The position numbers and the translations under genes are program-made. From positions 1-60,146 of the forward strand of contig CANRKS010000001.1 in the NCBI GenBank assembly GCA_947631285.1: a stretch of DNA of 60,146 nt, read 5' to 3'. Positions 1 to 48,325 of this stretch are shown piece after piece; positions within the stretch are counted from its first letter, which is position 1, and every line of letters begins with the position of its first letter. The stretch is from an uncultured Bacilli bacterium. GTDB taxonomy: Bacteria; Bacillota_I; Bacilli_A; RF39; UBA660. Below the pieces are notes generated by a model. That model was not told where the DNA came from, did not search any database, and worked only from the letters and a program-made list of their open reading frames with translations.

Positions 1-228
1 GATAAAAATTAACAAAAAAACAAGTATTTATGCTACTTGAATTAATATTTTCTCATTTCAACTGTCAAACTCGGGGGAAAACATAAATTAGCTATGGAAT
101 ATAAATGTGAGTTTTCAAAATCAATTATTATATCAATTAGTTTTTTTACTCTTTTCTCTTTTGTAATATTAATAAAAAATTGGATTGATTTAAAAAAAAG
201 AGAAAAAACTTATAAAAATTAAATTTTA

Positions 229-257
229 TTGACACGAAAATTACAGCTTTATAAGTA
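229..257 (+). promoter_or_regulatory. candidate sigma-A-type promoter for the 340-2815 operon
   Basis: TTGACA (229-234), 17-nt spacer, TAAGTA (252-257). Lies in a 339-nt AT-rich non-coding leader. Confidence 0.35.
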
Positions 258-339
258 AGTATTAAAAAATCTTAAATATTAATTGATATTTTAAAAATTA
301 TTAGTTATAATAATTATATATAATAAGGAGGAGATAAGT

Positions 340-603
340 TTGAAAGAAGCGACTGGTGAATTAAATATGACTGTTGTTACAGTTGTTGCAATTGCAGCAA
401 TTCTAGCATTTTTTTATCTTATAATTTGGCCAACAATTAGAACTAGTTTAAGTTTAACTACTGCATGTAGTAGTGCCGGCAATTCGACAATGACTTTTAA
501 AGACGATAATAATAAAGATTCAATAATATGTGCTAATGGTACCTGTACTGATCAAGAAACTCAAACTTCTAAAGTTTGTCAAGAAGAAAACAAAAATGGT
601 TAG
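340..603 (+). CDS. small prepilin-like / bitopic exported protein, Cys-bearing (paralog A1)
   Basis: TTG start behind AAGGAGGAG. 87 aa: 6-aa leader MKEATG, then hydrophobic helix LNMTVVTVVAIAAILAFFYLIIW, then a polar C-terminus with 4 Cys. Aligns with 607..864 (MKE.TG.LN.TVV...AFFY..WP..RT). Confidence 0.6.
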   Translation: MKEATGELNMTVVTVVAIAAILAFFYLIIWPTIRTSLSLTTACSSAGNSTMTFKDDNNKDSIICANGTCTDQETQTSKVCQEENKNG

Positions 604-606
604 ATC

Positions 607-864
607 ATGAAAGAGTCAACAGGTAGTTTAAATTCGACTGTAGTAATTCTTTTGGCTGTTGGGGTTCTAATAGCCTTTTTTTACTATACAGTTTGGCCAT
701 TAGTAAGAACTAATTTTGAGCAAAATTCTCAATGTAGTAAGGCTATTTGCGATGAATGTCCAGCTGATTCTAATGGCCAAAAAAATTGCGATTTTGTAAC
801 ATGTTATCCTAAAGGTAAAGAACATACTGAAGAAAATGCTTTACAATGTGTTTGGAAGGGTTAA
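607..864 (+). CDS. small prepilin-like / bitopic exported protein, Cys-rich (paralog A2)
   Basis: 85 aa: leader MKESTG plus helix LNSTVVILLAVGVLIAFFYYTVW. There are 6 Cys in the last ~45 aa (QCSKAICDECP...NCDFVTCYP...LQCVW). Tandem paralog of 340..603. Confidence 0.6.
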   Translation: MKESTGSLNSTVVILLAVGVLIAFFYYTVWPLVRTNFEQNSQCSKAICDECPADSNGQKNCDFVTCYPKGKEHTEENALQCVWKG

Positions 865-876
865 GGAAGTGAAATA

Positions 877-1383
877 GTGCGAGAAGCAGTTGGAGGAATT
901 CCGATATTTCAAATTGTTGTGGTTTTTATTTTGCTCTTCACTGGAATCATGTGTTTAACTATTAATAGATCAAAAGCATATGGGGTAAAGGATGAAATAA
1001 TTACTATAATAGAAACAGAAGGAATGAGTTCTGCTTCTTTTGAGTTAGATCAAAATGTTAATACTTTAATCGCAGAACAATTAAAAAACGTGGGATATAG
1101 AATTACCGGTAAGTGTCCTGATGGATATACTGGATATAACCGAGATGGTGTAGAGCAAAATAGAGGGGATTCGGCTTATTGTATTAGATACAACCGAGTT
1201 GAACATGTTTTTTATGAAGATGCTCAAAATAAGTGTAGTAATTCAAAATGTACACCGACGGAAGATGATTTTCCAGCAATGGCATATTATGATGTAGTTT
1301 TATTTTATCAACTTGATATTCCCCTTATTAAAGATTTATTTAATTTTAAGGTGACTGGTTCAACCCGAGTATTATTTAAGTAG
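877..1383 (+). CDS. prepilin/TadE-like bitopic exported protein (paralog B1)
   Basis: GTG start behind AAGGAAGTG. 168 aa: leader MREAVG plus helix IPIFQIVVVFILLFTGIMCL. The ectodomain carries GKCPDGYTGY...AYCIRYN...KCSNSKC. The C-terminal DLFNFKVTGSTR is shared with 1391..1825. Confidence 0.55.
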   Translation: MREAVGGIPIFQIVVVFILLFTGIMCLTINRSKAYGVKDEIITIIETEGMSSASFELDQNVNTLIAEQLKNVGYRITGKCPDGYTGYNRDGVEQNRGDSAYCIRYNRVEHVFYEDAQNKCSNSKCTPTEDDFPAMAYYDVVLFYQLDIPLIKDLFNFKVTGSTRVLFK

Positions 1384-1390
1384 GTGAGCT

Positions 1391-1825
1391 ATGAGAGAAG
1401 CGATTGGAACAGAAACAATTTTTAAAGCTGTGTTAGTATTTACTTTAATTTTTGCAGCTTTTGTAGCGGTAGCCATTACCTATAATAAAGCTTATAAAAT
1501 GAAAAATGAAACGATGTTTATTTTAGAAAAGTATGAAGGTATTAATGATAATTCATTAAGAATTATTAATAATTATTTAAGAAATAATGGTTATAAAACA
1601 AAAGGTATATGTGATGCTGGCGATTATGGTATAAATAGTTTAGAAGAAACTTCTTATGTAACTGCAAGTGGTAGTGATTCTTTTTATTACTGTTTGAAGC
1701 CTAATGAAAAATCAGGAAAGACGTTTATAACTATTAAAGTGTTTTTCCGATTTAGCCTACCTTTCTTTGGTGACCTATTTACTTTTAAAGTAACGGGTGA
1801 AACTAAAGGTATTAGAAATTTTTAG
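1391..1825 (+). CDS. prepilin/TadE-like bitopic exported protein (paralog B2)
   Basis: RBS AGGTGA. 144 aa: leader MREAIG plus helix TIFKAVLVFTLIFAAFVAVAI. A conserved Cys pair sits in GICDAGDYG...FYYCLKPN. C-terminal DLFTFKVTGETK. Confidence 0.55.
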   Translation: MREAIGTETIFKAVLVFTLIFAAFVAVAITYNKAYKMKNETMFILEKYEGINDNSLRIINNYLRNNGYKTKGICDAGDYGINSLEETSYVTASGSDSFYYCLKPNEKSGKTFITIKVFFRFSLPFFGDLFTFKVTGETKGIRNF

Positions 1826-1843
1826 TATAGGGGTGAATAAAAA

Positions 1844-2815
1844 ATGAATGTAATTATATCTAATAAATATCAAACTCTTCTGGGAACACTTAATATTGAC
1901 GTTATTAAGTCTATAAATGGAGAATTTACGATTCCTGATTTAGTTAATCAATTTACTAATTTCTTCTATAACAAAATGATTATTGATGTAACGGCGATTA
2001 AAAATTATCAAAATGTTAATGTAATGCGGGAATTATCAATGAATTTTGCAATGGATAAAGTTATTCTTTTATTAGATGACTCACCAGTAGTTAATTCAGG
2101 AAATTATTTATCACAATTGGTTTCTTTTGGCATATATAATTTTACGCGTAGTATAGATGCTATTCCTTTTTTAATCGAAAATCCTAATTCTTATAAAGAT
2201 GTAGCGGGATATCAAAACATTAATAATACCCCGGCAAGTGGTGGTATGCAAATGGCCAAGAGAAAAGAAGATGAAGGAAGAATTGAACAACGGATAATTG
2301 GTTTTAAAAATGTTACTGAGCACGCTGGTGCGACTACTTTAATATATATGTTAAAAAAACATTTAGAAGCAGCTTATAAAGTTAAAGCTATTGAAATTAA
2401 TAGTAATGATTTTGAATATTTTAATGATAAAAGTTTAGAAAGTGCTGATTTTATGAATGTAACATATAAAATTGCCAATTATAGTGATGCTGAAGTTGTA
2501 TTAGTGGATCTTAATGATGGGCCTGATAACATTTGCACAGAAGTTATTTACTTAATTGAACCAGGAATTATTAAACTTAATAAATTAATTAGAAATGACA
2601 GAAAAGTTTTTGAAAAACTTCGCAATAAAAAGATAGTATTAAACAAAAGTGTCTTAAATAATAAAGACGTATCTGATTTTGAGTATGAAAGTGGAAGTAA
2701 AGTTTATTTTAACATCCCTTGTTTAGATGAAAAACTAAGTAATAATAAAAAAATTAACGAATTTTTAATTGCTTTAGGCTTTTCCAGATTAAATTTAGAA
2801 AATGATAAAATGTGA
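1844..2815 (+). CDS. TadZ/CpaE/MinD-like protein with degenerate P-loop (probable pseudo-ATPase)
   Basis: RBS AGGGGTG, 323 aa. The N-terminal ~120 aa has a receiver-like beta/alpha pattern (MIIDVTAI, VILLLDD). The C-terminal half follows the MinD/ParA layout: IIGFKNVTEHAGATTL replaces KGGxGKT[TS] with both Lys missing, followed by VVLVDLNDG, EVIYLIEPG and KIVLNKS. Confidence 0.5.
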   Translation: MNVIISNKYQTLLGTLNIDVIKSINGEFTIPDLVNQFTNFFYNKMIIDVTAIKNYQNVNVMRELSMNFAMDKVILLLDDSPVVNSGNYLSQLVSFGIYNFTRSIDAIPFLIENPNSYKDVAGYQNINNTPASGGMQMAKRKEDEGRIEQRIIGFKNVTEHAGATTLIYMLKKHLEAAYKVKAIEINSNDFEYFNDKSLESADFMNVTYKIANYSDAEVVLVDLNDGPDNICTEVIYLIEPGIIKLNKLIRNDRKVFEKLRNKKIVLNKSVLNNKDVSDFEYESGSKVYFNIPCLDEKLSNNKKINEFLIALGFSRLNLENDKM

Positions 2816-2844
2816 TAAATTATAGTAAAAAAACGGGGATTTTC

Positions 2845-2873
2845 TTGACATATATTTCTAAATTAGATAAAAT
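2845..2873 (+). promoter_or_regulatory. near-consensus sigma-A promoter for 2908..3279
   Basis: TTGACA (2845-2850), exactly 17 nt, TAAAAT (2868-2873). RBS GAAAGAGGAAAGAAGG follows. Confidence 0.65.
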
Positions 2874-2907
2874 TTAGATAAGTGAAAGAGGAAAGAAGGT
2901 AAAAAAT

Positions 2908-3279
2908 ATGTTATTAGCCGATTTTTGTTCAGAAACCGCAGGCATTTGGGCTGTGCTTGGCTATGTTGTTTTAGTTATTAAAATTGTAATTCCTTTAATG
3001 TTAATTATTATGGGAATGATTGATTTAGGAAAGGCTGTTATTTCAAGTGATGAAAAAGCAATTAATAAAGCAGTTAGTACTTTAATTAAAAGATTTATTG
3101 CTGCCGTAATTGTCTTCTTTATCCCAACAATTGTTAGTGCTCTATTTAGTGTTGTTACAAGCATTAATATGAATCAAGATTATGCTACTTGTGTTCAATG
3201 CTTAGTAAATGTTACAGCAGCATCTGGAAATGCCGATTATCATTATTGTAAATCTGACGTTTCAATTGTAGAAAAATAA
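2908..3279 (+). CDS. TrbC/VirB2-like two-helix membrane protein
   Basis: 123 aa. Two hydrophobic helices (IWAVLGYVVLVIKIVIPLMLIIMGMI and FIAAVIVFFIPTIVSALFSVV) flank a short polar loop (DLGKAVISSDEKAINKAVSTLIKR). The polar tail has 3 Cys (TCVQC...YHYC). Confidence 0.4.
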   Translation: MLLADFCSETAGIWAVLGYVVLVIKIVIPLMLIIMGMIDLGKAVISSDEKAINKAVSTLIKRFIAAVIVFFIPTIVSALFSVVTSINMNQDYATCVQCLVNVTAASGNADYHYCKSDVSIVEK

Positions 3280-3288
3280 TAAAAAACG

Positions 3289-3316
3289 AAATCACTTAAA
3301 TTTAGGTGATTTTTTT
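3289..3316 (+). terminator. intrinsic terminator of 2908..3279
   Basis: Stem AAATCACTT/AGGTGATTT (one G:U) with a 6-nt loop, followed by a T7 run. Confidence 0.7.
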
Positions 3317-3323
3317 AATGCGT

Positions 3324-3344
3324 AAAAAAACTCGGTATTCCGAG
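3324..3344 (-). terminator. intrinsic terminator of 3345..3647 (minus strand)
   Basis: The minus strand reads CTCGG-AATA-CCGAG followed by TTTTTTT, directly after the stop codon. Confidence 0.55.
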
Positions 3345-3647
3345 CTATAACATATACATATTAGTTGTATTATTTTCATAATCATCAGCTGAGATAACAT
3401 TACCTGTGTTTTCTAATTTACTTAAGCGATAATCCATTCTATTTAATTGCCTTTCAATTTTGGCTAAACGACTTTCTATATCACTCCCATCATTTCCTGT
3501 GGTATAATTATTAGGCATAGGAGCGGGTCCTTGATAGAAGTAGTTACTACCAGTTTGGTAAGGAGCCGGTCCCATATAATTATTCATATTTGGATTGTAG
3601 GATTGATATGAACTTTCAGCAAAAAAAGAATTTCTTGTCTTACGCAT
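3345..3647 (-). CDS. hypothetical small protein, N/Y/P/Q-rich N-terminus plus short coiled coil
   Basis: 100 aa. YQSYNPNMNNYMGPAPYQTGSNYFYQGPAPMPNNYTTG is followed by IESRLAKIERQLNRMDYRLSKLE. RBS GGAGG lies upstream. Confidence 0.5.
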   Translation of the reverse strand: MRKTRNSFFAESSYQSYNPNMNNYMGPAPYQTGSNYFYQGPAPMPNNYTTGNDGSDIESRLAKIERQLNRMDYRLSKLENTGNVISADDYENNTTNMYML

Positions 3648-3695
3648 AAAATACCTCCTACAACATTATATGTTTTGAGAAAAGAAGTGGTTAAA

Positions 3696-4298
3696 ATGCG
3701 CATGCGCAGTCCTAAATATAAAGATGAAGTTATTGCCAGTTGTCCCTTTTTAATAACTGATGAAATCAATTTTGCTAATCATAATCCCTTACACATTGAA
3801 ATTGGGATGGGTAAAGGTAATTTTATTATTAATATGGCTTTAAATCATCCCGAAATTAATTTTATTGGAATTGAAAAATACCCCTCTGTCGCGGCAATTG
3901 CCATTAAAAAAGCTATGGAATATAATTTACCTAATTTAAAAATAATCATTAGTGATATTGTTAATTTAGAAAGTCTTTTAAAAAAGAAAGTTCAAGTCAT
4001 ATATCTTAATTTTTCTGATCCTTGGCCTAAGAAAAAACATACTAAAAGAAGATTAACATCGCCATATTTTTTAGAACTATATGATAAATTGTTTAAAGAT
4101 AAAAATTTGCTTATAATGAAAACAGATAATGATGATTTATTTTCTTATAGTATCAATTCTTTAAAGGAACATGGTTATAAAATAGAGGATATAAATTATG
4201 ATTTACATGCTACTAATATTCCTAATGTTTTAACTGAATATGAAGAAAAGTTTAGTAATAGAGGAATTAAAATAAAATATTTGAAAGCAAGTAAGTAA
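3696..4298 (+). CDS. trmB: tRNA (guanine46-N7)-methyltransferase
   Basis: MRMRSPKY N-terminus as in Bacillus TrmB. Motifs HIEIGMGKGNF, IGIE, LNFSDPWPKKKHTKRRL and TEYEEKF. I chose the ATG at 3696 over the TTG at 3675. Confidence 0.9.
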   Translation: MRMRSPKYKDEVIASCPFLITDEINFANHNPLHIEIGMGKGNFIINMALNHPEINFIGIEKYPSVAAIAIKKAMEYNLPNLKIIISDIVNLESLLKKKVQVIYLNFSDPWPKKKHTKRRLTSPYFLELYDKLFKDKNLLIMKTDNDDLFSYSINSLKEHGYKIEDINYDLHATNIPNVLTEYEEKFSNRGIKIKYLKASK

Positions 4299-6718: not shown

Positions 6719-7789
6719 ATGAAAAAAATTATATTTATATTAATGATGCTTATACCAATAAAAGTATTTTCGATTAGTGCCTCCAGTGCTATTGCAATGG
6801 ACTTAGATACTGGTAGAGTTTTATATGGATATAATTTAGATAGTCAAAAATTAATTGCTAGTACGACTAAAATCATGACAGCTTTAATAGCCATTGAAAA
6901 AGGGAATTTGGATGAAATAGTTACGGTTAGTGATATAATTTATGAAGCTTTTGGCAGTGCCATTTATATTGAAGTAGGAGAAGAAATTACTTTAAGGGAT
7001 CTTTTATATGGCCTTATGATGCGAAGTGGTAATGATGCGGCTTTAGTGATTGCTGAATATATTGCCGGTAGTAAAGAAGAATTTGTCTATTTGATGAATG
7101 ATTATGCGGCTAATTTAGATATGACAAATACCGTTTTTTATAATCCTCATGGTTTAGAAGAAAGTAATGGTAATGCTAATGTTTCCACCGTTAGGGATAT
7201 GGCAAAATTAACTAAATATGCTATGGAAAATAGTACTTTTAGAGAAATATTTAAAACTAAAGACCATACAGTTAAAACTAATTATAAGACTTATGTATGG
7301 CATAATAAAAATAAATTATTAAATGAAGAATATATTACGGGAGGGAAAACGGGTTTTACTGAGTTAGCGAGGAGAACTTTAGTATCTACTGGAAGTAAAA
7401 ATAATATTAATATTGTGATTGTTACTTTAAATGACCCTAATGATTGGCAAGATCATAAAGATTTATATAATAATATTTTTAAAGAGTATAAAAGTTATCA
7501 AATTATTAATAAAGATAAATTTAAAATAAAGAAAGAGAATTATTATAAAGATGCTAGTTTTTATGTCAAAAATGATTTTTTTATGGCCTTGACTAAAAAA
7601 GAGCTTAAGAAAATAAGTCTCGATATTAATCTTTTAAAATTGCATGAATATGCTAACGATGATGTTGTTGGTTATGCCCTAGTTATGTTAGATGGTGTAA
7701 CTTATCATAAGGAGCCTATTTATATTAAAAAGATAGTTAAAGAAGAAAATCTTAGCTGGTGGCAAAAATTCAAAAGGTGGTTATTTTAA
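6719..7789 (+). CDS. dacB: D-alanyl-D-alanine carboxypeptidase (S11, DacB/PBP5*-like)
   Basis: Signal peptide present. SxxK = ASTTK, SxN = RSGND, KTG = GGKTGFT. Followed by spmA and spmB, as in the Bacillus dacB operon. Confidence 0.85.
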   Translation: MKKIIFILMMLIPIKVFSISASSAIAMDLDTGRVLYGYNLDSQKLIASTTKIMTALIAIEKGNLDEIVTVSDIIYEAFGSAIYIEVGEEITLRDLLYGLMMRSGNDAALVIAEYIAGSKEEFVYLMNDYAANLDMTNTVFYNPHGLEESNGNANVSTVRDMAKLTKYAMENSTFREIFKTKDHTVKTNYKTYVWHNKNKLLNEEYITGGKTGFTELARRTLVSTGSKNNINIVIVTLNDPNDWQDHKDLYNNIFKEYKSYQIINKDKFKIKKENYYKDASFYVKNDFFMALTKKELKKISLDINLLKLHEYANDDVVGYALVMLDGVTYHKEPIYIKKIVKEENLSWWQKFKRWLF

Positions 7790-8376
7790 TGGTAGGTTAT
7801 ATTTGGGCTTTTTTAATAGGAATAGGTATTATTTATTCTCTTTTAAGTGGTAATATCAATGTTATAAATGAAAGTATTTTAACTAATGCTTCAGAAGCTT
7901 TAGATTTAATTTTAAATTTATTACCTATAATTGTTCTTTGGACAGGTGTATTGAAGATTGCTGAAGTAAGTGGATTATTAGATAAATTTGCTCATTTATT
8001 AAATCCTTTTTTATGTAAATTATTTCCTTCTGTTCCTAAAGATAATAAAGCTTTAGGCTATATATCTTCCAATATTGCAGCAAATATGTTAGGACTTGGA
8101 AGTGCGGCCACTCCAGCCGGTTTAAAAGCGATGAATGAACTTCAGAAAATAAATCCCGAAAAAGATACAGCATCTCCACCAATGATTACTTTTCTTATCT
8201 TAAATACCGCAGGAGTTACCATTATTCCCACAACAATATTAGCATTAAGAGTGGCTTATGGATCAAGTAATCCAGGCGAAATAATATTTCCGGCCATTAT
8301 TGCTACTACTTGTTCATCAATCGCCGGAATAACTTTAGATTATTTAATTAGAAAGAAGCATCAAAAATGGAAATAA
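7789..8376 (+). CDS. spmA: spore maturation protein A
   Basis: Polytopic nucleoside-recognition-type membrane protein starting MVGYIWAFLIG. The ATG overlaps the dacB stop (TAATG). Synteny supports the call. Confidence 0.8.
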   Translation: MVGYIWAFLIGIGIIYSLLSGNINVINESILTNASEALDLILNLLPIIVLWTGVLKIAEVSGLLDKFAHLLNPFLCKLFPSVPKDNKALGYISSNIAANMLGLGSAATPAGLKAMNELQKINPEKDTASPPMITFLILNTAGVTIIPTTILALRVAYGSSNPGEIIFPAIIATTCSSIAGITLDYLIRKKHQKWK

Positions 8377-8885
8377 TATCTAAGATAATTTTACCAATTT
8401 TTATTATTGTTATTGTTTTTTATGGTGTTAAGAAGAGGGTAAATGTTTATGATGCTTTTTTAGAAGGAGCTAAAGAAGGACTAGTTACAACATTCAACAT
8501 TTTTCCCGCTGTTATTGCAATGATTTTTGCTATTAATATTTTTTTAGATAGTAATTTTTTAGCGTTTTTAATTAAATTAATTAGTCCTTTATTGGGAAGA
8601 ATAACAATGCCTTTAGAAATTATTCCTATGGCTCTACTTAGACCAGTATCAGGAACGGCCTCTTTAGCTATTATGAATGATATTTTTAAGAATTTTGGTC
8701 CCGATTCTTTTATTGGTCGCCTTGCTTCAGTATTACAAGGATGTACAGATACTACGATTTATGTTATTGCTTTATATTTTGGAACAGTTAAAATTACTAA
8801 AATAAAGCATGCTCTTTGGGGTGGTTTATTTGCGGATTTAGTAGGAATAGGGGCGGCGATTATTTTAACTAATCTTTTCTTTTAA
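8367..8885 (+). CDS. spmB: spore maturation protein B
   Basis: 172-aa polytopic membrane protein that overlaps spmA by 10 nt. Fits dacB-spmA-spmB synteny. Confidence 0.8.
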   Translation: MEIISKIILPIFIIVIVFYGVKKRVNVYDAFLEGAKEGLVTTFNIFPAVIAMIFAINIFLDSNFLAFLIKLISPLLGRITMPLEIIPMALLRPVSGTASLAIMNDIFKNFGPDSFIGRLASVLQGCTDTTIYVIALYFGTVKITKIKHALWGGLFADLVGIGAAIILTNLFF

Positions 8886-18647: not shown

Positions 18648-20366
18648 ATGCATCATAAATGGTTAAATTTATTTTTTTTAACACTTTTTTCCTTTATCTT
18701 AAATTTAAGTATTTGTTATGCTGATACTTATAGAGGAAAAATTACCGGAACGGGTGTTAATTTACGAAGTGGTCCCGGAACTAATTACAGTAGTATTAAA
18801 ACTTTAAGTAAAAATAGTGAATATACTTTAGTAAGTAATAAACTTTATCCATCTGAGAAGAGTTGCTCTAAAGGATGGTATCAAATGTATTATGAAGCTA
18901 GTGCCACTGGTTATGTTTGTGCTGATTATGTTTCTGTTTCTACTTTAGTATTTAATGAAAATGCTACAACAAATTGTGAACAAAATATGCAAGCTGCGGG
19001 CTTTCCATCTTCTTACTGGCCAGGATTATGTAAAATGCAACAAGATCATCCCAGTTGGCAATTTAAAGCTATTGCTACAGGTCTTGATTGGGTAACAGCC
19101 GTTAATAAAGAAAGTGCCTGTGGTGAAAGCTATGTTGCTAGTAGTGATCCCGCCAATATTGATACATCTTGTAAAAATCCTTACTCTAAAACTTGGTATC
19201 CAGCCTCAGCTAGTGCGGTTGCTTATTATATGGATCCTCGTAACTGGTTAACTGATAATGCCGTTTTTCAATTTGAATATTTAAAATACGATAATGGCTT
19301 AGCTTCATCTTATGCTTCAGCTGCATCTGATTTAATTGATCATTCTGAATTTTATAAATATCATTATGCTAAGGGTACTAATTTAGGCGATGTAATGAAT
19401 GATGTGGGGAAAGAATTAGACGTTAGTCCTGTGCATATTGCTTCCAGAGTTTTGCAAGAGCTAGGGGCTAAAAATACTTTATATAATTTATATAGTGGTG
19501 TTTATCCTGGTTATGAAGGATACTATAATTTCTATAATTTTGGTGTTAGTGATAGTTGTGCCACTAGTAATGGAACGACGGTTTGTGGTTTAACTTATGC
19601 CAAAAATAATGGCTGGTATGGCTTATATGAAGCTATTAAAGGGGGAGCAGATCAAATTTCTAGAAATTATATTGCTAAAGGACAATATACGATATATTTA
19701 CAAAAGTTTAATGTTGTTCCAACTGAAAGTAATAAGTTATATGGTCATCAATATATGACTAATCTAAGTTCACCATCAGAAGAAGCTAAATCTTCTTATA
19801 AAACTTATAATAATGCCGGTCTTATCAATAGTCCTTTTGTCTTTTATATTCCGGTTTATAATAATATGAATAATACTAATTACTATTCTAGTAATGGCGC
19901 GGTTGATAGTAATGATTTAACAGATCCATCAAAACTGGCTATAAGTACAATCGTTACTAGTAGTGGTTATACATATCAAAGTGGTAAAATTTCTGGCATT
20001 AGTGCCAATACTTCTATAAGTCAAATTAAAAGTACCATTGAAAGTATTTCAGGTTCTAATACTGTTGTGGTAAAAAATAACAAAGGAAATCTCGTAGTCG
20101 ATGGTAATATTGGAACTGGTTATACAGTTACAGTTAATAATTCTACCACAAATGAAACTTTAACCGCTATTGTTAAAGGTGATACATCTGGTGATGGAGA
20201 GGTAAACGCTCTGGATTTATTACAAGTGCAAAAGAAATTATTAGGAACATATACTTTAAATGATGTATATGATACAGCTGGTGATACATCAGGGGATGGA
20301 GAAGTAAATGCTCTTGATTTATTACAAATTCAAAAAAAGATATTAGGAACTTATGAAATAAAATAA
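18648..20366 (+). CDS. secreted SH3b + GH73-like N-acetylglucosaminidase + dockerin protein
   Basis: Signal peptide present. SH3b-like GKITGTGVNLRSGPGTNYSSIKTL. Glucosaminidase hallmarks YYMDPRNWL..AVFQFEYL, ASRVLQELG and GHQYMTN. The C-terminus carries two 34-aa-spaced segments GDTSGDGEVNALDLLQ[VI]QKK[LI]LGTY, which are dockerin Ca-binding repeats. Confidence 0.75.
   Translation: MHHKWLNLFFLTLFSFILNLSICYADTYRGKITGTGVNLRSGPGTNYSSIKTLSKNSEYTLVSNKLYPSEKSCSKGWYQMYYEASATGYVCADYVSVSTLVFNENATTNCEQNMQAAGFPSSYWPGLCKMQQDHPSWQFKAIATGLDWVTAVNKESACGESYVASSDPANIDTSCKNPYSKTWYPASASAVAYYMDPRNWLTDNAVFQFEYLKYDNGLASSYASAASDLIDHSEFYKYHYAKGTNLGDVMNDVGKELDVSPVHIASRVLQELGAKNTLYNLYSGVYPGYEGYYNFYNFGVSDSCATSNGTTVCGLTYAKNNGWYGLYEAIKGGADQISRNYIAKGQYTIYLQKFNVVPTESNKLYGHQYMTNLSSPSEEAKSSYKTYNNAGLINSPFVFYIPVYNNMNNTNYYSSNGAVDSNDLTDPSKLAISTIVTSSGYTYQSGKISGISANTSISQIKSTIESISGSNTVVVKNNKGNLVVDGNIGTGYTVTVNNSTTNETLTAIVKGDTSGDGEVNALDLLQVQKKLLGTYTLNDVYDTAGDTSGDGEVNALDLLQIQKKILGTYEIK
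20178..20354 (+). repeat. tandem dockerin repeat (two ~75-nt copies, 102-nt period)
   Basis: 20178-20252 and 20280-20354 share GGTGATACATC.GG.GATGGAGA.GTAAA.GCTCT.GATTTATTACAA. Confidence 0.85.
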
Positions 20367-40445: not shown

Positions 40446-43400
40446 ATGATGACAAAACTATTTAAAATATTAAATGTAGTAATCATAACAATGTTTTTAA
40501 ATATATTTGTAGTTAGGGCTGATGGCTGTAGTAACGTAAGAATTGTTACGGATGGAGTAGGTAGTCCAACTAGTTTTTCTTATGGTTATCAATCTGGCAG
40601 TGTTCGTTATAAAATTTATGATTATCGTGTTAGAGTTAATGGAGGTGCTAGTATCAGTGCCTATTGTCATAATCCTGGTATTCATGCTTGGGAAAAAACT
40701 AACGAAGTACTAAATTGTGAAAGAGAATTATTTGATCCAACGAATAATAGTGTTAAGCAAAATATTTATGATTCAGGGATCATATATCTTTTAAAATCTG
40801 CTCCTAATAAATGGTTAGCCATAAATTTATATCAATTATTATTTTCCGATAGAGTTGATGTTAGATATGCGGAAACTGATATGTATTCTTCTCAACTATA
40901 TTATTTAGAAAATCAAATCAATAAATATTTAGATGAAAAAAATGAAAATAATAAAGCCAAAAGATTAAGAGAAAAAGTAAGTGCCTTAAAGAAAACATAT
41001 GGCTCTAGTATAGGGAAAAAATATAGTGGCGTCAGTAGATATAATGATTCTAATGGTGTAGATAGCGCTATGGATTATGTTTTAAATGCCCTTGATGTTG
41101 CCATTGATTACGCAAATAATGGAGGACCAACTGTCAAAATAGGTAATCCAACCAGAAAGAAAGCTAATACGGAAACAGAGTTAAGATCAACTTTTACTTA
41201 TAAAATAGATATTAAAGAGTTTGCTGAAAATAGTGAAATTTATTTATCTTATAATTGTACAAGAGGCTGTAATATTGCTGATGTTAAATTTTATTTAAAT
41301 AATGAAGTAAAAAGTGCTTCTGAATTAAGTAATACAAATTTAGTCAAATTAGTTCAAAATAATAGTTCAAGTAAAAAATATTCAGGAACGGTTGAATTTG
41401 TTATTGAGTATAGTGGTCCAGTTAGAGAAGATTGTGATGAAACTAGATATAAAATAAGTTTAAAATATCGAGATGAAGCTTTAGCTGCCGAAGCATATGA
41501 GGTTGATGAGTGTTCTAATGTTGAAAAGTGCCAACGACTTTATGTTTTAGCAGGGAATAATACCCAAAATTATCGAACAACGGATATAGAAAATCAATTT
41601 CAATTATGTTCTACTTCTAAAGAAGTTGGAGAATGTAAGACTTATGTTGGTGATGCTTCTTGTGTCCCTTGTGAAGAAAATGATAATAAAGTAGAAATAA
41701 AAGAAGGTTATGATACGGAAGATGTATGTACTGAACCAACTGAAGATGATTTAAACATTAAAAAATGTGTTGCTAGTAATAGTGCCAGAGATACATCGGG
41801 AAATACTCATAAAAGTAATGATTATACAAGTGAAGCAGGCAGTGGCAATTTTGCTGGTACTGATGGAGGTAATGGTATTTATTGTAAAGAAGATTATACT
41901 TTAACCTTACCAGGTTCAAGAAAAGTAGATGCCGGAAGATATTTTGTCCTTCGTTCACAAATTGAAGGAACTAAGTCTTGTTATTCAACTAGAATAAAAG
42001 ATAATACTGCGACTAATTCGTCTGTCAAAGCGGCAGCTCAAAGTACAGTGAATGTCTATAAAAACTATGCCAAAGCCAAAGCTTTACTAGAGTGCTTAAA
42101 TGGAGGCGGAAGTGGTAGATGCCATGTGTCTTCGTTTTATACCAGCGGCGGTGTCTGCCGAACAAGACCCGTAACAAGGAAACGTTATGCTCAAAAAGAA
42201 GAAGATGAACCGTGTCCTGAAGGTTATACAGAAACTACGTTTGCTGGCAAGCCTACTTGTGAACAAGAGTATACAGACATTGATAGAATTTATTATTTAG
42301 TACCTGGTATTGATGTTTATTGGGATTATACATATTATAATGGTAACTCTTGCACACCAGTAACAGAAAATGCTTTTAAAACTTGGACAACTAGTAATCG
42401 TGGTAGATGGCTATGTTTAAATGATGATGAGCTAGCTGATTCTAAATTTATGGAAGAACTTTATAATAGTGTAGATGAATTAACTCCGTCCTTAGAGCGA
42501 GAATTAGGAGAAGAAGCTAATTTTACTTGTAACTGTACTGGCGATCCTTCTAAAGGTCCCGTTGATTGCCCTTGTTCTGGCCGGGGAGCCACTGGATTTA
42601 CCGCAGGTCTTGGTACAGGAGGAATGTGGTCAATTTTAAAAAATTATAATAAAGTCATTGGTTTTTATACTGGCGGCTCTGATATTGGTGGAGGTACGGT
42701 AACTGAAGGAGGCGGAGGTTACTCTGGAACTGGTGAAGGATCTTACGGAGTTACTTTAAATCCTAATCCATTTGGAGGCTGGCAAGTTGGTTATAACTTT
42801 AATCCAGAAATGCATTTTTGGTATCAAGAAAGATATATGAAAAATGTTTTAACTGATACTTTAGACCGTTATGATGAATCTATTGAAAGATTGGCGCCTT
42901 TATATTGTACGGGTGATGTTTCTGATGACTATGAAGAATGTTCTGGTCTTGGAGGATGGAAAAAATCTTTAAGCTTAGGGGCAATCGGAGATACAAGTGC
43001 CGATATTTATCAAGACCGAGCTTGTGCTTGTACAACAGAAGGATGTAAATGGTATACCTATGCTATTGCTAATGTTAAATATATTAAACAAACTGCTAAA
43101 GCTGAAGCTAAATTTGTAACACCTACCCAATTTTATAACATTTATCCAACCGGAGCAGTTCCTGTCGGATTACCAGGCTTAGAAATTGATAATGCGACAG
43201 TAATGGAAAATGGCTTACCAGTTGAGTTAGGTAGTGAAAGTGGGGGAAAAGTTTACTTATTATGGTATGAAAATTTAGGTGAATACTATAATGGTGATAC
43301 TTTAGGAAGAATTTGGGGTAATTATAATAGTGTGGTAGCTACAACCTTACAAGCGAGTGAAGCATGTCGAACTGAGAGATCTTCAATTATTTTTGAAGAT

Positions 43401-44384
43401 GAAACAAATGATGTTTACCATGATGAAGGACTTTATAAATGCCGTTATGATGTTAACGAATGTAGTCAATGTAAAGAAGAAGTGGACAATTATTGTGACC
43501 CAGCTTGTCCAAATGATCCTGATTGTCCAAGTTCTGGCAGTTGTTCTAGTGTAAGTGATGGTATGTGCAAAGCTGGTTGTCCTGCCGATCCGGATTGTTA
43601 TTGTGCATCTTGCCCTCCGGATATCAAAAACAGATGTGCTGTTTTAAAAGATGAAAATGGAGGAAGTCATTATTATGATAGAACCGGTAAAGAAACTAGT
43701 ATGGGAACATATTATTCTCAATGTTGTCCAAATGGTAGATGCCAAGTAAATTGTAAGAGTTGCTTGTTTGATGGTACTGATCTAAAAGCTAGTTATAGAC
43801 AAATAACAAATGAGGACTTAAACCCTAATGATCGTTCTTTAGGTACTAACTGGGCTTGGGATAATAATATCAATACGGCCATTGAATTAAAAGCTTATGT
43901 AACAACTAAAGAAATTGAAGAAAATAGTAATTCAATTTATGAAGTTGATTTTGAAAATACTTCAGATGAACAAGATTTTGCCATGCAAGTTACGATGGAT
44001 CCAAAAGCTGTAAATTGGATTAGAGATTATAATCAAACGGCTTCGGGAGGATATCTAAATAATACTTTAGAGTGCTATGATCTAGAAGTTGGGGAAAATA
44101 TTTACGATAATGTTTATTGCTATAGTACTTTCATTGATGAAATGATTAATGATAATGTTGGTAATATTAAAATTGCAGGAGCTGAAAGACCAATGGATGA
44201 AAATGGCCGAAAAGCTTATAGTAATGGTTATTTTATAAGTTGGCAAACTGATAATATTAATACCCAAGAATGGGAAGTAAGAACCGAAAGAGGAATTGAA
44301 TACTATACATCTAATTTTGGTATGGTATACGATAAGACAGCAAATAAAGATGTAGATTATCGGGTTGGACCTTCTTGGAAATAA
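40446..44384 (+). CDS. giant secreted cysteine-rich protein, unknown function
   Basis: 1312 aa with signal peptide MMTKLFKILNVVIITMFLNIFVVRADG. I hand-counted ~53 Cys. It has a Gly-rich segment and a 109-aa stretch with 18 Cys that includes CPNDPDC and CPADPDC. There is no LPXTG motif and no C-terminal TM segment. Confidence 0.6.
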   Translation: MMTKLFKILNVVIITMFLNIFVVRADGCSNVRIVTDGVGSPTSFSYGYQSGSVRYKIYDYRVRVNGGASISAYCHNPGIHAWEKTNEVLNCERELFDPTNNSVKQNIYDSGIIYLLKSAPNKWLAINLYQLLFSDRVDVRYAETDMYSSQLYYLENQINKYLDEKNENNKAKRLREKVSALKKTYGSSIGKKYSGVSRYNDSNGVDSAMDYVLNALDVAIDYANNGGPTVKIGNPTRKKANTETELRSTFTYKIDIKEFAENSEIYLSYNCTRGCNIADVKFYLNNEVKSASELSNTNLVKLVQNNSSSKKYSGTVEFVIEYSGPVREDCDETRYKISLKYRDEALAAEAYEVDECSNVEKCQRLYVLAGNNTQNYRTTDIENQFQLCSTSKEVGECKTYVGDASCVPCEENDNKVEIKEGYDTEDVCTEPTEDDLNIKKCVASNSARDTSGNTHKSNDYTSEAGSGNFAGTDGGNGIYCKEDYTLTLPGSRKVDAGRYFVLRSQIEGTKSCYSTRIKDNTATNSSVKAAAQSTVNVYKNYAKAKALLECLNGGGSGRCHVSSFYTSGGVCRTRPVTRKRYAQKEEDEPCPEGYTETTFAGKPTCEQEYTDIDRIYYLVPGIDVYWDYTYYNGNSCTPVTENAFKTWTTSNRGRWLCLNDDELADSKFMEELYNSVDELTPSLERELGEEANFTCNCTGDPSKGPVDCPCSGRGATGFTAGLGTGGMWSILKNYNKVIGFYTGGSDIGGGTVTEGGGGYSGTGEGSYGVTLNPNPFGGWQVGYNFNPEMHFWYQERYMKNVLTDTLDRYDESIERLAPLYCTGDVSDDYEECSGLGGWKKSLSLGAIGDTSADIYQDRACACTTEGCKWYTYAIANVKYIKQTAKAEAKFVTPTQFYNIYPTGAVPVGLPGLEIDNATVMENGLPVELGSESGGKVYLLWYENLGEYYNGDTLGRIWGNYNSVVATTLQASEACRTERSSIIFEDETNDVYHDEGLYKCRYDVNECSQCKEEVDNYCDPACPNDPDCPSSGSCSSVSDGMCKAGCPADPDCYCASCPPDIKNRCAVLKDENGGSHYYDRTGKETSMGTYYSQCCPNGRCQVNCKSCLFDGTDLKASYRQITNEDLNPNDRSLGTNWAWDNNINTAIELKAYVTTKEIEENSNSIYEVDFENTSDEQDFAMQVTMDPKAVNWIRDYNQTASGGYLNNTLECYDLEVGENIYDNVYCYSTFIDEMINDNVGNIKIAGAERPMDENGRKAYSNGYFISWQTDNINTQEWEVRTERGIEYYTSNFGMVYDKTANKDVDYRVGPSWK

Positions 44385-44823: not shown

Positions 44824-44856
44824 ATAAGGAAAGTTAATCTTTTCTTATTTTTTTTA
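44824..44856 (+). terminator. intrinsic terminator of 44466..44822, embedded in the 3' end of the convergent gerKB-like gene
   Basis: 10-bp stem ATAAGGAAAG/CTTTTCTTAT (one G:U), 5-nt loop, T8 run. Confidence 0.65.
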
Positions 44857-45850
44857 AGTAAAAGAAAAGGGTAATAAAAAGAAGAAAGAAAATAAATAAG
44901 ACAAGAGGATAAGAATAGAAGACGGTAATGATAAAGCGATAGTTGCTGCCTACGATGAAAATACTTAAGATGATGGTTATAAAGATTGCTAAGTAATAAT
45001 AGATAGATTTGTATTTATGAGGGAGGATTTCTTTAACATTAAAAGTTAAAGTTGAAAGTGTTATAAACATATCAAAATACCATATAAAAGTTGAAAGATT
45101 TTCAATGTTTTCGATAAAATCAAGAATTTTAATTTGTTTTAAAACAGCATATTCAGGGAAACTATAAATTCTAATTAAAGGTTCACCTAAACATAAAATG
45201 GTTGATAAAGTAATTAAGAAGAGCATTAAACTAGAGATAAGATAAACTTTAAGTTCATATTTAAAATTATAATTATTAAAATTTAGAGTAATAATATTAG
45301 GTATTGTAGTAATGGATGCATAAATTAAAGAAGCTTTAATAATACCTTTTGAATTATTAGATAATATTGGTGTAATGGCTTTAAAGTCGATATATTTAAT
45401 CAGGGCAAAGATATAAATAATGATGGTAAAAATACTGATGACAAAAAGAAGATTACTTAAAGTTTCTAAAACTCTTTTTTCTTTATAAGTAAGATATATA
45501 GCTAAGAATAAGAAAGGTAAAATAACAATTATTTTTGGAGTGTATAGAAGATAAAAAGAGTTAACAAACATAGGAAGTAAAATTAAAATAATGGTTATTA
45601 AATAAAGATAAAAGAGAAAGAAAATAAATAAATAAAATTTGCCTAAATAACTATTTTTTAAAGTTTCTTTTAGATTGTTATCTTTTAGACATTCTTTAAT
45701 TTTACTATAAATAAAGAGAATAATAATTCCTAGCATGGTGCCAAGGATAAGAGATATCCAAGCATCTTTAGAGGCATTTTTAAAAAGTAAAAAGAAACCA
45801 ATTCCAAACATTGAAGAACTAGAAATAAAATAAGTTAATTTATTTTTCAT
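44834..45850 (-). CDS. gerKB: spore germination receptor subunit B (GerAB/GerKB family permease)
   Basis: ~10 TM segments with an APC-like profile. Last gene of an A-C-B operon. I prefer the ATG at 45850 (behind GAGGTGG) over the TTG at 45862. Confidence 0.75.
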   Translation of the reverse strand: MKNKLTYFISSSSMFGIGFFLLFKNASKDAWISLILGTMLGIIILFIYSKIKECLKDNNLKETLKNSYLGKFYLFIFFLFYLYLITIILILLPMFVNSFYLLYTPKIIVILPFLFLAIYLTYKEKRVLETLSNLLFVISIFTIIIYIFALIKYIDFKAITPILSNNSKGIIKASLIYASITTIPNIITLNFNNYNFKYELKVYLISSLMLFLITLSTILCLGEPLIRIYSFPEYAVLKQIKILDFIENIENLSTFIWYFDMFITLSTLTFNVKEILPHKYKSIYYYLAIFITIILSIFIVGSNYRFIITVFYSYPLVLFIFFLLFITLFFYLKKIRKD

Positions 45851-46919
45851 TTTCCACCTCAAAGATAAAGCCTTTTGTATTAATTTTTAAATCAACATTA
45901 ACAGAAACGTCACTTGTTTGCCATAAATTATGATTTTCTTTGCGAAACTTTTTATAATACATTTCTTGAAAGCCTAAAATATCAGTTTGGTTTTGTTGTA
46001 ATTTTTTGATAAAATCCTTTACTTTTTCTTTTATTAAAAGGGCAAAATCTTCATTTAATTTTTGATATGATTTTTCATCTTTTAAATTAAAATCAGCACT
46101 GTTATCTAAAATTTTACCATCGAGTTTTAAATCTAGAGTAATTTTATCATTGGTAATAGCTGTCTTAGTTTGGGAATGACTAATATTAATAGTTATGTTT
46201 CCCGTGGGATAATTTTTAGTAAATTTTAAAGCAAAAACATCATTAGTTAATAAATTAAATAAGGGAGATTCTTCTTTAGTTAAAGTATTTTGAAAATAAA
46301 AGCCTTTAAAAAGATAAAATTCGTCTAAAGATATCTCATCATTTTCATTTATAGTAAGAGAACTTAAAACAACATCCGTTCGCGGACTAACAAATTGCGC
46401 TAAAACTTTTTGAAATGTTTTAGTTGTTGCTAAATTATTATTATAGACTTCATTATTTAAAAGATTAATAATGAAATCACTTACAACAGGGATGTTTTCA
46501 CTATTATGTTTTAAAATATCTTCGGGACTAACTTTTTTCGCCACCACACTGATGAATTCATCTCGAATATCAGTATCTCTTAAGAGAAAATCACTAATTT
46601 CATCAAGGTGATCTTTAATGACGCTTTCACTTAAGATTACTACTTTTAGATGAGCAAAATAAGGCTTTTTCCCAACCTTATAATTAGTGGCCGTAAAAGC
46701 ATCAACTATTTTTTCACCCATTCCTTTCACGGTAAAACTTTTCATCGCTGTATTTTCTTCCGTTTTAATATCGTTTAAAATTTCATAAGTTAAAATGAAA
46801 TCATTATCTTGATAATCAATACCAATGCCACTTATAATAGCTAAATTATTAAGTTCAATATTGTCATAACAGCCTCCTAGAAGGAGGGAACTAATGATTA
46901 AAATAATTATTTTTTTCAT
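45840..46919 (-). CDS. gerKC: spore germination receptor subunit C (Ger(x)C lipoprotein)
   Basis: Lipobox LLGGC followed by YDNIELNNLAIISGIGIDY, the typical Ger(x)C N-terminus. 359 aa. Confidence 0.8.
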   Translation of the reverse strand: MKKIIILIISSLLLGGCYDNIELNNLAIISGIGIDYQDNDFILTYEILNDIKTEENTAMKSFTVKGMGEKIVDAFTATNYKVGKKPYFAHLKVVILSESVIKDHLDEISDFLLRDTDIRDEFISVVAKKVSPEDILKHNSENIPVVSDFIINLLNNEVYNNNLATTKTFQKVLAQFVSPRTDVVLSSLTINENDEISLDEFYLFKGFYFQNTLTKEESPLFNLLTNDVFALKFTKNYPTGNITINISHSQTKTAITNDKITLDLKLDGKILDNSADFNLKDEKSYQKLNEDFALLIKEKVKDFIKKLQQNQTDILGFQEMYYKKFRKENHNLWQTSDVSVNVDLKINTKGFIFEVENEK

Positions 46920-48325
46920 GAAAATTTTCCTCTCGTTAAATTTTTATTAGTAATAAGTCGACTTCTTTTGGTATTTTTTATATCTTTTCTTTTTAAAACT
47001 GATTGATAAAAATATTCTTTATTATAAGGAGCAATCGGGGCAAAAAAAGGAGCATTTAAAGATTTTAAAGAAATTAAATTGATTAATAAGAGCATGGCAC
47101 AGAGGAAGATACCGTATAAGCCAAAAAAGGCAGCGAAGAATAAAAATAAATAGCGGTAATATCTTAAAGCATTATTAATCTCTAATTCTGTAAATATTAA
47201 ACTAGTAATAAAAGTAAAGGATGCGACAATGATAGCGATGGGAGAAACAAGTCCGGCATTAACCGCGGCATCACCAATTATTAAAGCTCCTAAAATGGAA
47301 ATAGCGGAGCCAAAATTAGAAGGGAATCTTAAATCACTTTCTCTTAAGACATCACAAATAAAAAGTAACATGATTATTTCGACAATACTAGGAAAAGGAA
47401 CACCAGATCTCTGGGTACTAAAATTAATTAGTAAACTAGCCGGGATAGTTTCTTGATTATAATTAATGATTGCAATATATACGCCTGGAGTAATCATAGA
47501 CATAATAAAGGAAAATAGCCTTAAAAGTTTTATAAAAGCAACATTGATACTTTTAACATAATTATCGTTAACAGGATTAATAAAATCAATTAAAAAAGTA
47601 GGAAGAATAAGAGCAAAAGGCGAAGTATCCATCATGATAACAATTTTTCCTTCTAAAAGAGCATTAACAGCTAGATCTGGTCTTTCAGTTCTTTTAATCG
47701 TAGGGAAAACGGTTTTGTTTTCACTTTCTAAATAATTAATAATCGTCCCTTGATCAATCACACCATCGACATCAATTTTTTTTAATTTTTCCTTAATAAT
47801 ATTAACATTTTGTAAATCAGCAATACTATCAATATAATTAATGCTAATAGTAGTTTTTGTAATTCTGCCCATGACCATTTCAATAGTTTTTAAAGTATGG
47901 CTTTTGATTCTTCTTTTAATAAGTCCCATATTAATTTGATAATTTTCATTAAAAGAATCTTCGGGTCCTAAAAGAGATGGTTCTCTTAAAGATTGAGTAA
48001 TACTTCGATTTAAATCCCCTCGGGCTTCAATAGCTATAATTTTATTTTCAAAAATGACAATGGCAAAACCATTCGTCAAATAAAATTCAATTTGATCTTC
48101 TTCGGTAATATTAATGGCATTAGGACCGGGAATAGAGTTTTCAATATCTCGAGTTTTTTTAAAAGTTAAGTTTTTTAAAATATATTCATTGATTTTATCA
48201 GATGAACAAACCGTTTCAATAAAAATGACATAAACTGATTTTAAGAAGTTAATTTTAACTTCTTTTATTTTTAAATCAGGTGTTTTAGAAAATTCTTTTT
48301 TTATTCTTTCTACAATTTTATTCAT
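46916..48325 (-). CDS. gerKA: spore germination receptor subunit A (GerA/GerKA family)
   Basis: 469 aa. A soluble N-domain is followed by 5 TM segments (e.g. FGSAISILGALIIGDAAV). Overlaps gerKC by 4 nt. Confidence 0.8.
   Translation of the reverse strand: MNKIVERIKKEFSKTPDLKIKEVKINFLKSVYVIFIETVCSSDKINEYILKNLTFKKTRDIENSIPGPNAINITEEDQIEFYLTNGFAIVIFENKIIAIEARGDLNRSITQSLREPSLLGPEDSFNENYQINMGLIKRRIKSHTLKTIEMVMGRITKTTISINYIDSIADLQNVNIIKEKLKKIDVDGVIDQGTIINYLESENKTVFPTIKRTERPDLAVNALLEGKIVIMMDTSPFALILPTFLIDFINPVNDNYVKSINVAFIKLLRLFSFIMSMITPGVYIAIINYNQETIPASLLINFSTQRSGVPFPSIVEIIMLLFICDVLRESDLRFPSNFGSAISILGALIIGDAAVNAGLVSPIAIIVASFTFITSLIFTELEINNALRYYRYLFLFFAAFFGLYGIFLCAMLLLINLISLKSLNAPFFAPIAPYNKEYFYQSVLKRKDIKNTKRSRLITNKNLTRGKFS

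Follow-up and report, generated by a model that had tools for sequence, protein, structure and literature searches.

Six co-oriented genes at positions 340-3279 of a 60,146-bp contig from an uncultured Bacilli bacterium of the order RF39, family UBA660 (CANRKS010000001.1, assembly GCA_947631285.1; the whole contig is hereafter called the window), probably make up the distal half of a divergent type IV filament operon, the half that encodes its subunits. This operon would be of the tight adherence (Tad)-like kind (type IVc, archaeal-type) and is conserved on the chromosomes of uncultured RF39-type gut Bacilli. Four of the six open reading frames (ORFs) encode pilin-like proteins, two of them small (pil1 and pil2; ORF1 and ORF2) and two larger (pp3 and pp4; ORF3 and ORF4). 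The fifth, Zlike (ORF5), encodes a cytoplasmic protein and the sixth, ORF6, a two-helix protein resembling the VirB2 subunit of type IV secretion systems (T4SSs). RF39 is a prevalent order of uncultured bacteria with reduced genomes that live in the guts of humans and animals, and a surface-filament machine kept in every lineage sampled is a prime candidate for attachment to, or feeding from, hosts or microbes. The subunits are invisible to current hidden Markov model (HMM) libraries, the locus is often linked to a T4SS, and we found no description of the RF39 system or its protein families in the literature. Tad-like operons with unannotatable pilin-like genes have been reported in other gut Firmicutes (PMC11680825, PMC9523054).

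Gene order and the upstream machine

When family HMMs were mapped on 86 loci, the order pil-pil-pp3-pp4-Zlike proved intact in all 82 loci with enough flanking sequence, and pp4 followed pp3 in every locus mapped. The arrangement is no peculiarity of a single strain, and its conservation goes well beyond what chance would give; a lack of conservation was what an earlier note on this DNA, made from the letters alone, had named as counting against its proposal. Zlike is encoded in at least 229 species-level genomes of gut Bacilli, including Firmicutes bacterium CAG:460 and Mycoplasma sp. CAG:776; the genera CAG-460 and CAG-776 belong to family UBA660 of order RF39 (PMC13155120). Names and context can now be given to 'hypothetical' families comprising about 1,800 pil1-like sequences (1,784 family members, none named) and more than 6,700 ORF5 relatives in the protein collection, where the top ORF5 matches listed carry no Pfam domain and are named just 'hypothetical protein'. 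A very distant lineage, L087, lends further support, as it keeps a minimal pilin, minor pilin and Zlike module of three proteins: one of 52 aa (MKEASGELNMT), one of 123 aa (MREAIGG) and a Zlike of 504 aa. The cassette is an ancient module, passed on by vertical descent, and it has a conserved promoter region of its own: positions 283-345 are 82-89% identical to the DNA upstream of pil1 in seven other lineages (e.g. L001, L014 and L033). A mobile-element origin was also considered and dismissed, given the vertical conservation of the locus and its setting among housekeeping and sporulation genes.

The relatives also reveal what lies ahead of the cassette. On contigs of 95-171 kb that display the full order, the same six genes are preceded by genes for a secreted, anchored protein of 236 aa, a secreted Cys-rich protein of about 1,200 aa, a DUF5411 protein (E 2.5e-51), an RcpC/CpaB-like protein (upstream of the ATPase in L005; PF16976, 31.5 bits vs a threshold of 28.8), a T2SSE ATPase (E 3.4e-30) and two polytopic proteins of 301 and 262 aa. 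The best PDB relatives of the ATPase are CpaF (5e-20), archaeal FlaI (5.5e-19) and VirB11, and by sequence it belongs to the Tad/archaeal branch of secretion ATPases. This machine stands directly upstream of the cassette in 32 loci and upstream past an insertion of 0.3-4.3 kb in another 12, together 44 of the 70 informative loci; a further 12 loci, in which its arrangement was not determinable, were excluded from the 70.

Such a set of parts might instead build a non-adhesive pseudopilus, a short piston spanning the periplasm or the wall that takes up DNA or nucleotides (ComG-like) or secretes proteins (like the type II secretion system, T2SS), rather than a long surface pilus. Indeed, a single ATPase with platform proteins and a complement of two small plus two to three larger pilin-like proteins resembles comG and T2SS sets, the host is a walled monoderm, and RF39 bacteria reportedly lack de novo nucleotide synthesis (PMC13155120), so that DNA uptake would be useful. 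We nevertheless consider a pseudopilus unlikely, since the ATPase is nearest to CpaF and FlaI and not to ComGA, PilB or GspE, RcpC/CpaB is a hallmark of Tad systems, neither ComEA nor ComEC was seen adjoining the locus, and the leaders of the pilin-like proteins break the ComG rule.

In the window all six ORFs are present, co-oriented on the plus strand, as the earlier note had placed them (Table 1). The first five are tightly spaced, with gaps of 3, 12, 7 and 18 nt, and a gap of 92 nt separates ORF5 from ORF6. Purine-rich motifs resembling Shine-Dalgarno (SD) sequences stand ahead of five of the six starts; that of ORF2 is weak. The two tandem paralog pairs are confirmed by BLASTP (ORF1 and ORF2, 48% identity over the N-terminal 46 aa, E 1e-14; ORF3 and ORF4, 30% over 165 aa, E 2e-18). 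The top two sigma-70-like matches within positions 1-3750 are those ahead of pil1 and ahead of ORF6, the second agreeing with the separate promoter previously assigned to ORF6.

Table 1. Features of the cassette and its surroundings; positions refer to the window unless a relative's locus is named.
Feature	Position	Strand	Description
YfhO-family 3' remnant	58..222 (about)	+	interrupted by in-frame stops; marks locus cut by contig end
Promoter of pilin sub-operon, sigma-70-like	283..311	+	TTGATA-17-TATAAT, 11/12 match
pil1 (ORF1)	340..603	+	87 aa, TTG start; small pilin-like, candidate major subunit
pil2 (ORF2)	607..864	+	85 aa; pil1 paralog
pp3 (ORF3)	877..1383	+	168 aa, GTG start; minor-pilin-like, MREAVGGIPIFQIVVV
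pp4 (ORF4)	1391..1825	+	144 aa; pp3 paralog, MREAIGTETIFKAVLV
Zlike (ORF5)	1844..2815	+	323 aa; cytoplasmic, two domains, dead Walker A GFKNVTEHAGATT
Promoter of ORF6, sigma-70-like	2845..2873	+	TTGACA-17-TAAAAT, 11/12 match
ORF6	2908..3279	+	123 aa; T4SS_pilin-like (VirB2-like), two transmembrane helices
Terminator-like hairpin and U-run	3288..3320	+	-9.9 kcal/mol, z -4.85; 0/200 shuffles fold as well
Rce1-like/CPBP intramembrane protease, example	L063 7589-8272	-	divergent from pil1
T4SS_pilin-like array and T4SS genes	L001 11049-19199		conserved chromosomal T4SS adjoining Tad-like operon

The pilin-like proteins and Zlike

On both strands of the 60 kb, precisely four proteins, ORF1 to ORF4, combine the leader M[KR][EDQN][ASTG] with a strongly hydrophobic stretch behind it. 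The pil1 protein opens with MKEATGELNMTVV and continues with a hydrophobic helix and a small Cys-containing tail, and its N-terminal stretch of about 31 residues is nearly invariant across all lineages (MKEATGELNMTV[VI]T[VI]VAIAA..FFY..[IV]WP). Its paralog pil2 opens with MKESTGSLNSTVV and has a Cys-rich tail ending in C-V-W-K-G; throughout the lineages the pil2 family begins with MKEATGELN.T, and its alignment displays a conserved Cys pattern and the C-terminus C-x-[YW]-K-G. Both proteins consist of a helix plus a small Cys-rich tail and are Flp-like in size. The corresponding N-termini are M[KR]E[AS].GG.S[IL]F[QN]IV for pp3 and M[KR]....[GS]T for pp4, and the DUF5411 protein of the machine half shares the leader type (MK[EN][AS][YF]WGYWL). 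All four proteins have a short polar leader followed by a hydrophobic helix, and the predicted structure of pp3 agrees with the earlier note's view of them as pilin-like. An AlphaFold model of pp3 (58 sequences; predicted local distance difference test, pLDDT, 84.6; predicted template modelling score, pTM, 0.72) has a 44-residue N-terminal helix (residues 8-51), a second helix and a four-stranded sheet, so that pp3 as modelled has the lollipop architecture of pilins. The sole recurrent weak family for the four leader proteins is archaeal Pilin_N (PF07790), to which 9 of 40 pil1/pil2 members show similarity with E <= 0.1 (best 5.7e-4), none attaining the 25.2-bit threshold.

In one clade the cassette is followed, 3 kb further downstream, by a complete canonical Tad locus (L054, 13786-18636). 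It encodes Flp, TadE, a TadG-like protein, a ParA-type CpaE, a T2SSE ATPase and two T2SSF proteins, and its leaders are MGKRG|QALVEY (Flp), MKKG|QALVEF (TadE) and MNKRG|QTLIIF (TadG-like). Some genomes carry two Tad-type subunit sets, and the canonical TadA proteins of L053-L060 belong to this separate canonical locus. With canonical and cassette leaders side by side in L054, two leader grammars coexist and that of the cassette is distinct. A near-invariant non-Flp leader and a missing prepilin peptidase together raise a testable question about how the subunits are recognised and processed. The leader M-[KR]-E-[AS]-x-G may be a recognition signal different from that of Flp, and it would be cut by some peptidase or left uncut. 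Within the clade that has no machine next to the cassette (L047-L075), 18 of 22 loci carry a gene for an Rce1-like/CPBP protease, divergent and 73-165 bp upstream of pil1. The gene is absent from the window; its product may be a leader peptidase, or its position may be mere clade synteny.

The description of ORF5 as a protein of MinD or TadZ type with a dead Walker A motif needs to be divided. That the motif is dead is clear: in a 37-sequence alignment H160, A161, G162, A163, T164 and T165 are invariant at the Walker A position, so that the sequence reads HAGATT instead of GKT/S, with alanine where the lysine would be, and the P-loop has grown longer; the alignment also contains a VLNK motif and a Walker-B-like VDLND. 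The AlphaFold model (pLDDT 72.8) comprises a (beta/alpha)5 N-domain, which is flavodoxin/receiver-like by model and DSSP pattern, a disordered linker and a C-terminal alpha/beta domain. Foldseek matches of the latter are MeaB (4e-5), HypB, UreG, FtsY/SRP54, FleN, ParA, MinD and BcsQ. On the strength of this model Zlike is a nucleotide-dead, MinD/ParA-class (SIMIBI) pseudo-nucleoside triphosphatase with a receiver-like domain, which upholds the MinD half of the description at the level of fold. Membership of TadZ/CpaE finds no such support in sequence. The solved TadZ was not among the top 50 Foldseek matches, Zlike profiles of 37 and 78 members returned nothing from the PDB or Pfam, and 0 of 78 diverse members match the Pfam families AAA_31, CbiA or ParA. 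An exhaustive search of 1.84 billion representatives returned family members only (519 clusters at 50% identity), with no bridge to ParA or CpaE, and hhalign against the bona fide CpaE of L054 gave a probability of 9%, though Walker B and VLNK align in register. Zlike is therefore TadZ-like in architecture and context and not a demonstrable member of the TadZ family. Several family members are 400-520 aa long, and in that of L087 (10001-11515) the two domains are joined by some 200 residues of low complexity, rich in Q/N/P/M.

The window also holds a dacB-spmA-spmB-like operon (6719-8885) and a gerAA/gerAB/gerAC germinant-receptor operon (44834-48325), which indicate that this RF39-type bacterium forms spores. 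These operons, together with the MinD/ParA-class fold of ORF5, could be taken to favour a sporulation or division membrane complex in a spore-former, either a SpoIIIA-like feeding channel or a MinD-like positioning system, all the more as the SpoIIIA operon likewise has a T2SSE-like ATPase. We rejected this reading as barely credible. None of the proteins matches a Spore_III_A-type or Min family, the kind of HMM match that the earlier note had thought damaging to its proposal; RcpC and the CpaF-type ATPase point to Tad, and the promoter is sigma-A-like.

Taking the cassette as the subunit half of a Tad-like filament operon, the following course of events can be proposed. The small pil1 and pil2 and the larger, lollipop-shaped pp3 and pp4 would insert in the membrane via their N-terminal hydrophobic helix, and the CpaF/TadA-type hexameric ATPase would drive the two polytopic platform proteins so that subunits are extracted and polymerised into a surface filament. 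The RcpC/CpaB-like protein belongs to the same upstream gene set, which adjoins the cassette in relatives. Together with the pilin-like DUF5411 protein, pp3 and pp4 might prime or cap the filament, and the giant Cys-rich secreted protein is a candidate adhesin. On the cytoplasmic side ORF5 may act as a docking or scaffolding factor in a TadZ-like role. ORF6, separately transcribed, would be a VirB2-like membrane protein that probably serves the T4SS found downstream in many relatives.

Contrary findings and the contig edge

Several findings weigh against a Tad-like filament operon. No filament has been observed, and its assembly, processing and function are inferred. None of ORF1-ORF4 reaches threshold against Pfam and NCBIfam: Flp_Fap (PF04964) matches neither these proteins nor 40 pil1/pil2 members, whose N-terminus is MKEATGELNMT, and in Pfam searches TadE (PF07811) matches neither ORF3 nor ORF4, and N_methyl none of the pilin-like proteins of the cassette. 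These three were among the profiles singled out by the earlier note. As that note had recognised, the leaders follow neither the Flp rule (G|xxxxEY) nor the ComG rule (G|FxxxE), there being no E at +5 and no EY or EF in N-termini from across the lineages. The pp3 model has no significant Foldseek match in the PDB (best E 0.46, no solved pilin), a failure that may stem from the lollipop shape and the truncated crystal constructs and not from real dissimilarity. The presumed platform proteins of 301 and 262 aa, placed where TadB and TadC would be expected, show no T2SSF match in Pfam, no PDB match and no mutual homology by hhalign. A prepilin peptidase of the A24 family was found neither among the 8 window ORFs with >=4 predicted transmembrane segments nor among the recurrent multi-transmembrane ORFs of 87 flanking loci (about 1.3 Mb); the families found among the ORFs screened in window and flanks were BacA, glycosyltransferases, Ger proteins, Lgt, PAP2, Rce1-like, Zip, VanZ and ABC-2. 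In 26 of the 70 informative loci the available upstream flank of about 3-8.5 kb contains no machine. Finally, BLASTP and family-profile searches detected no ATPase, platform or RcpC gene in the window.

The last of these points is an uninformative contig-end artefact. The window comprises the whole contig, whose first base lies 339 nt ahead of pil1, and so the locus is truncated. What had been called a 339-nt non-coding gap is this contig start, and it holds the 3' remnant of a YfhO-family gene. The intact YfhO proteins of L004 and L008 can be aligned, at their C-terminus, with a 42-aa ORF at 94-222, and positions 76-345 are 74% identical to the L008 DNA upstream of pil1. In the closest relatives (L004, L007 and L008; ORF5 88-89% identical) an intact YfhO gene stands between the gene for the 262-aa TadC-like membrane protein and pil1. 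The remnant therefore ties the window to their arrangement, with the TadC-like gene just past YfhO. It was correctly noticed that the window lacks an ATPase and a platform protein, but the 'orphan' label and the notion of an unrecognised minimal system built on this absence do not survive comparison with relatives, and 'orphan' calls at contig edges need checking in this way. The second option in the earlier note, an accessory module for machinery encoded elsewhere, comes essentially to the truth. The machine may still have been lost in this particular strain, the YfhO gene beside the cassette being decayed and our view being of this contig, a possibility that belongs with the contrary findings above.

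A truly orphan, self-sufficient cassette, that is, a membrane complex or filament with no dedicated ATPase or platform, nonetheless strikes us as very improbable. It would account for a window without a motor, for the separation of the cassette from any machine in 26 of 70 relatives, for its own conserved promoter and for the three-gene minimal module that stands alone in L087. However, adjacency of a CpaF-type machine is the majority state, closest relatives included, the window is cut 339 nt upstream of pil1, and we know of no type IV filament that assembles without an ATPase.

In 8 loci, drawn from two distant lineages, pil1 is directly preceded by an intact gene for YfhO, of a glycosyltransferase family; the YfhO proteins of the two lineages are mutually only about 25% identical. 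The pil1 and pil2 proteins share a conserved N-x-T (ELNMT), and a link between the two by glycosylation is speculative.

ORF6, the neighbouring T4SS and known systems

ORF6 is a hairpin of two transmembrane segments with a basic connecting loop and conserved outer Cys residues, as judged from sequence and alignment, and it has no signal peptide. Its match to PF18895 (T4SS_pilin) covers profile positions 4-71 of 71 with E 4.3e-5 and 23.9 bits vs a gathering threshold of 26.6. The VirB2-like character attributed to it earlier is thus backed by its two helices and a near-full profile match and weakened by a score below threshold. Family-wide, 25 of 32 members match PF18895 at E <= 0.01 (best 2.8e-6). 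An ORF6-type gene follows Zlike within 300 bp in 51 of 81 loci, often in arrays of 2-4. In 22 relatives the array is followed, 3-6 kb downstream, by genes for PrgI/VirB3-like, TraC-like and VirB4 proteins; the PrgI domain was confirmed, and the VirB4 proteins of these loci are 85-91% identical across lineages. L001-L003 have a gene for an M23/lysozyme hydrolase after VirB4, and in L001 two larger proteins, of 352 and 463 aa, bear the two-transmembrane T4SS_pilin-like domain at their C-terminus.

That ORF6, and possibly ORF5, belongs functionally to the T4SS, as the VirB2-like subunit of a monoderm T4SS whose only tie to the Tad-like operon is synteny, is a possibility that we take seriously without favouring it. 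The family-wide PF18895 matches, the promoter and terminator of its own, the arrays of 2-4 paralogs with larger proteins carrying the same domain, and the T4SS genes downstream in 22 loci all speak for it, and VirB2-like arrays beside the T4SS of Patescibacteria (PMC12102498) offer a parallel. Yet the window and its closest relatives have trmB downstream of ORF6 and no T4SS gene there, monoderm T4SSs are said to lack VirB2 homologues (PMC12102498), and in one clade two ORF6-type copies begin just 9-21 nt behind Zlike, a spacing suggestive of joint transcription with the pilin operon. Between ORF6 and trmB the window has a convergent gene on the minus strand (3345-3647) for a Q/N/Y/P-rich, coiled-coil protein of 100 aa with weak matches only, to XhlA and coiled-coil families; L004 has a 110-aa minus-strand gene at the matching position, likened to it by place and size.

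Among described systems, the RF39 locus is closest in parts to the Tad/Flp systems (Aggregatibacter tad, Caulobacter cpa and Bifidobacterium tad). In relatives it shares with them a CpaF/TadA-type ATPase, an RcpC/CpaB-like protein and two platform-sized polytopic proteins, and in the cassette very small major-pilin candidates, minor-pilin-like proteins of about 150 aa and a ParA/MinD-class accessory protein with a receiver-like N-domain. It nevertheless departs from canonical Tad in several defining features. The Flp (G|xxxxEY) and TadE signatures of Pfam are both missing, and the leader reads MKEATG and then ELN; the platform proteins have no T2SSF match; no TadV peptidase was found; and the TadZ-like protein is Walker-A-dead, is encoded behind the pilins and not ahead of tadA, and shows no homology by sequence that could be detected. 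In L054-type genomes, moreover, canonical Tad genes coexist separately. Compared with TadZ/CpaE proteins such as Eubacterium rectale TadZ, Zlike has the same atypical receiver-like N-domain and MinD/ParA-class domain in a Tad-type locus, a likeness at fold level only, but it lacks HMM, PDB-sequence and hhalign support, its Walker A lysine is replaced and its P-loop is lengthened.

Archaeal type IV pilins (PF07790) resemble the cassette proteins in a short leader ending in G before the hydrophobic helix and in not requiring E at +5. They differ in that the RF39 leader has a conserved acidic E3 and E at +1, the Pilin_N matches are all sub-threshold, and no peptidase of the PibD/FlaK type was seen. 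On the established view, reportedly that of Denise et al. (2019), Tad systems derive from archaeal ones.

Two loci from gut Clostridia are also comparable. Miller et al. (2022) predicted a DUF5411-containing CpaF/PilC operon in Roseburia, Ruminococcus and Eubacterium (PMC9523054). With its 8-9 genes, CpaF ATPase, DUF5411, large surface or invasion-type protein and small unannotatable genes (PMC9523054) it recalls the RF39 locus, a likeness drawn by description; it is, however, a prediction from gene context only, in Clostridia, and the RF39 platform proteins are not recognisable as PilC/GspF. In TANB77 (Nat Commun 2024) the order CpaB-TadZ-CpaE-TadA-TadBC is followed by six short, single-transmembrane proteins called 'pilin-like' from context (PMC11680825). 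TANB77 too is an uncultured, genome-reduced gut Firmicute with unannotatable pilin-like genes (PMC11680825) and is likened to RF39 by context, but it belongs to another order, of the Clostridia, and has a recognisable TadZ/CpaE and a fused TadBC. The VirB2 arrays of Patescibacteria (PMC12102498) resemble ORF6-type arrays in the two-transmembrane hairpin, an HMM similarity at sub-family level, the tandem divergent paralogs, the VirB4/VirB3-type T4SS nearby and the genome-reduced host; the RF39 host, in contrast, is walled and spore-forming, and the ORF6 of the window scores below threshold and has neither a signal peptide nor a T4SS neighbour.

A more far-reaching proposal, which we put forward tentatively and regard as doubtful, joins these strands. 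The RF39 locus would be a separate branch of type IV filaments with its own subunit grammar, marked by an invariant M-K-E-A-T-G-E-L-N, no E5 and no A24 peptidase, in which maturation would be carried out by a different enzyme (the Rce1-like/CPBP protease being a candidate) or would not occur, with E3 taking over the part of E5. In place of TadZ there would be a MinD-class scaffold that is nucleotide-dead, and the filament would be coupled, physically and functionally, to a VirB2-bearing monoderm T4SS. Together they might constitute a cell-contact or DNA/nutrient-acquisition apparatus behind the dependent lifestyle of these genome-reduced gut bacteria, parallel to the type IV pili and T4SS of Patescibacteria.

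Two further genes of the window may be recorded. The first, at 18648-20366 on the plus strand, encodes a protein of 572 aa that combines an SH3_3 domain with a type I dockerin at its C-terminus. The second is a 1,312-aa ORF at 40446-44384, also on the plus strand, which is a paralog or ortholog of the giant Cys-rich protein of the relatives' operon, with 36-37% identity over the C-terminal ~550 aa. It stands alone, followed by the convergent gerA operon, in a block that is locally richer in GC (0.37 vs ~0.27).

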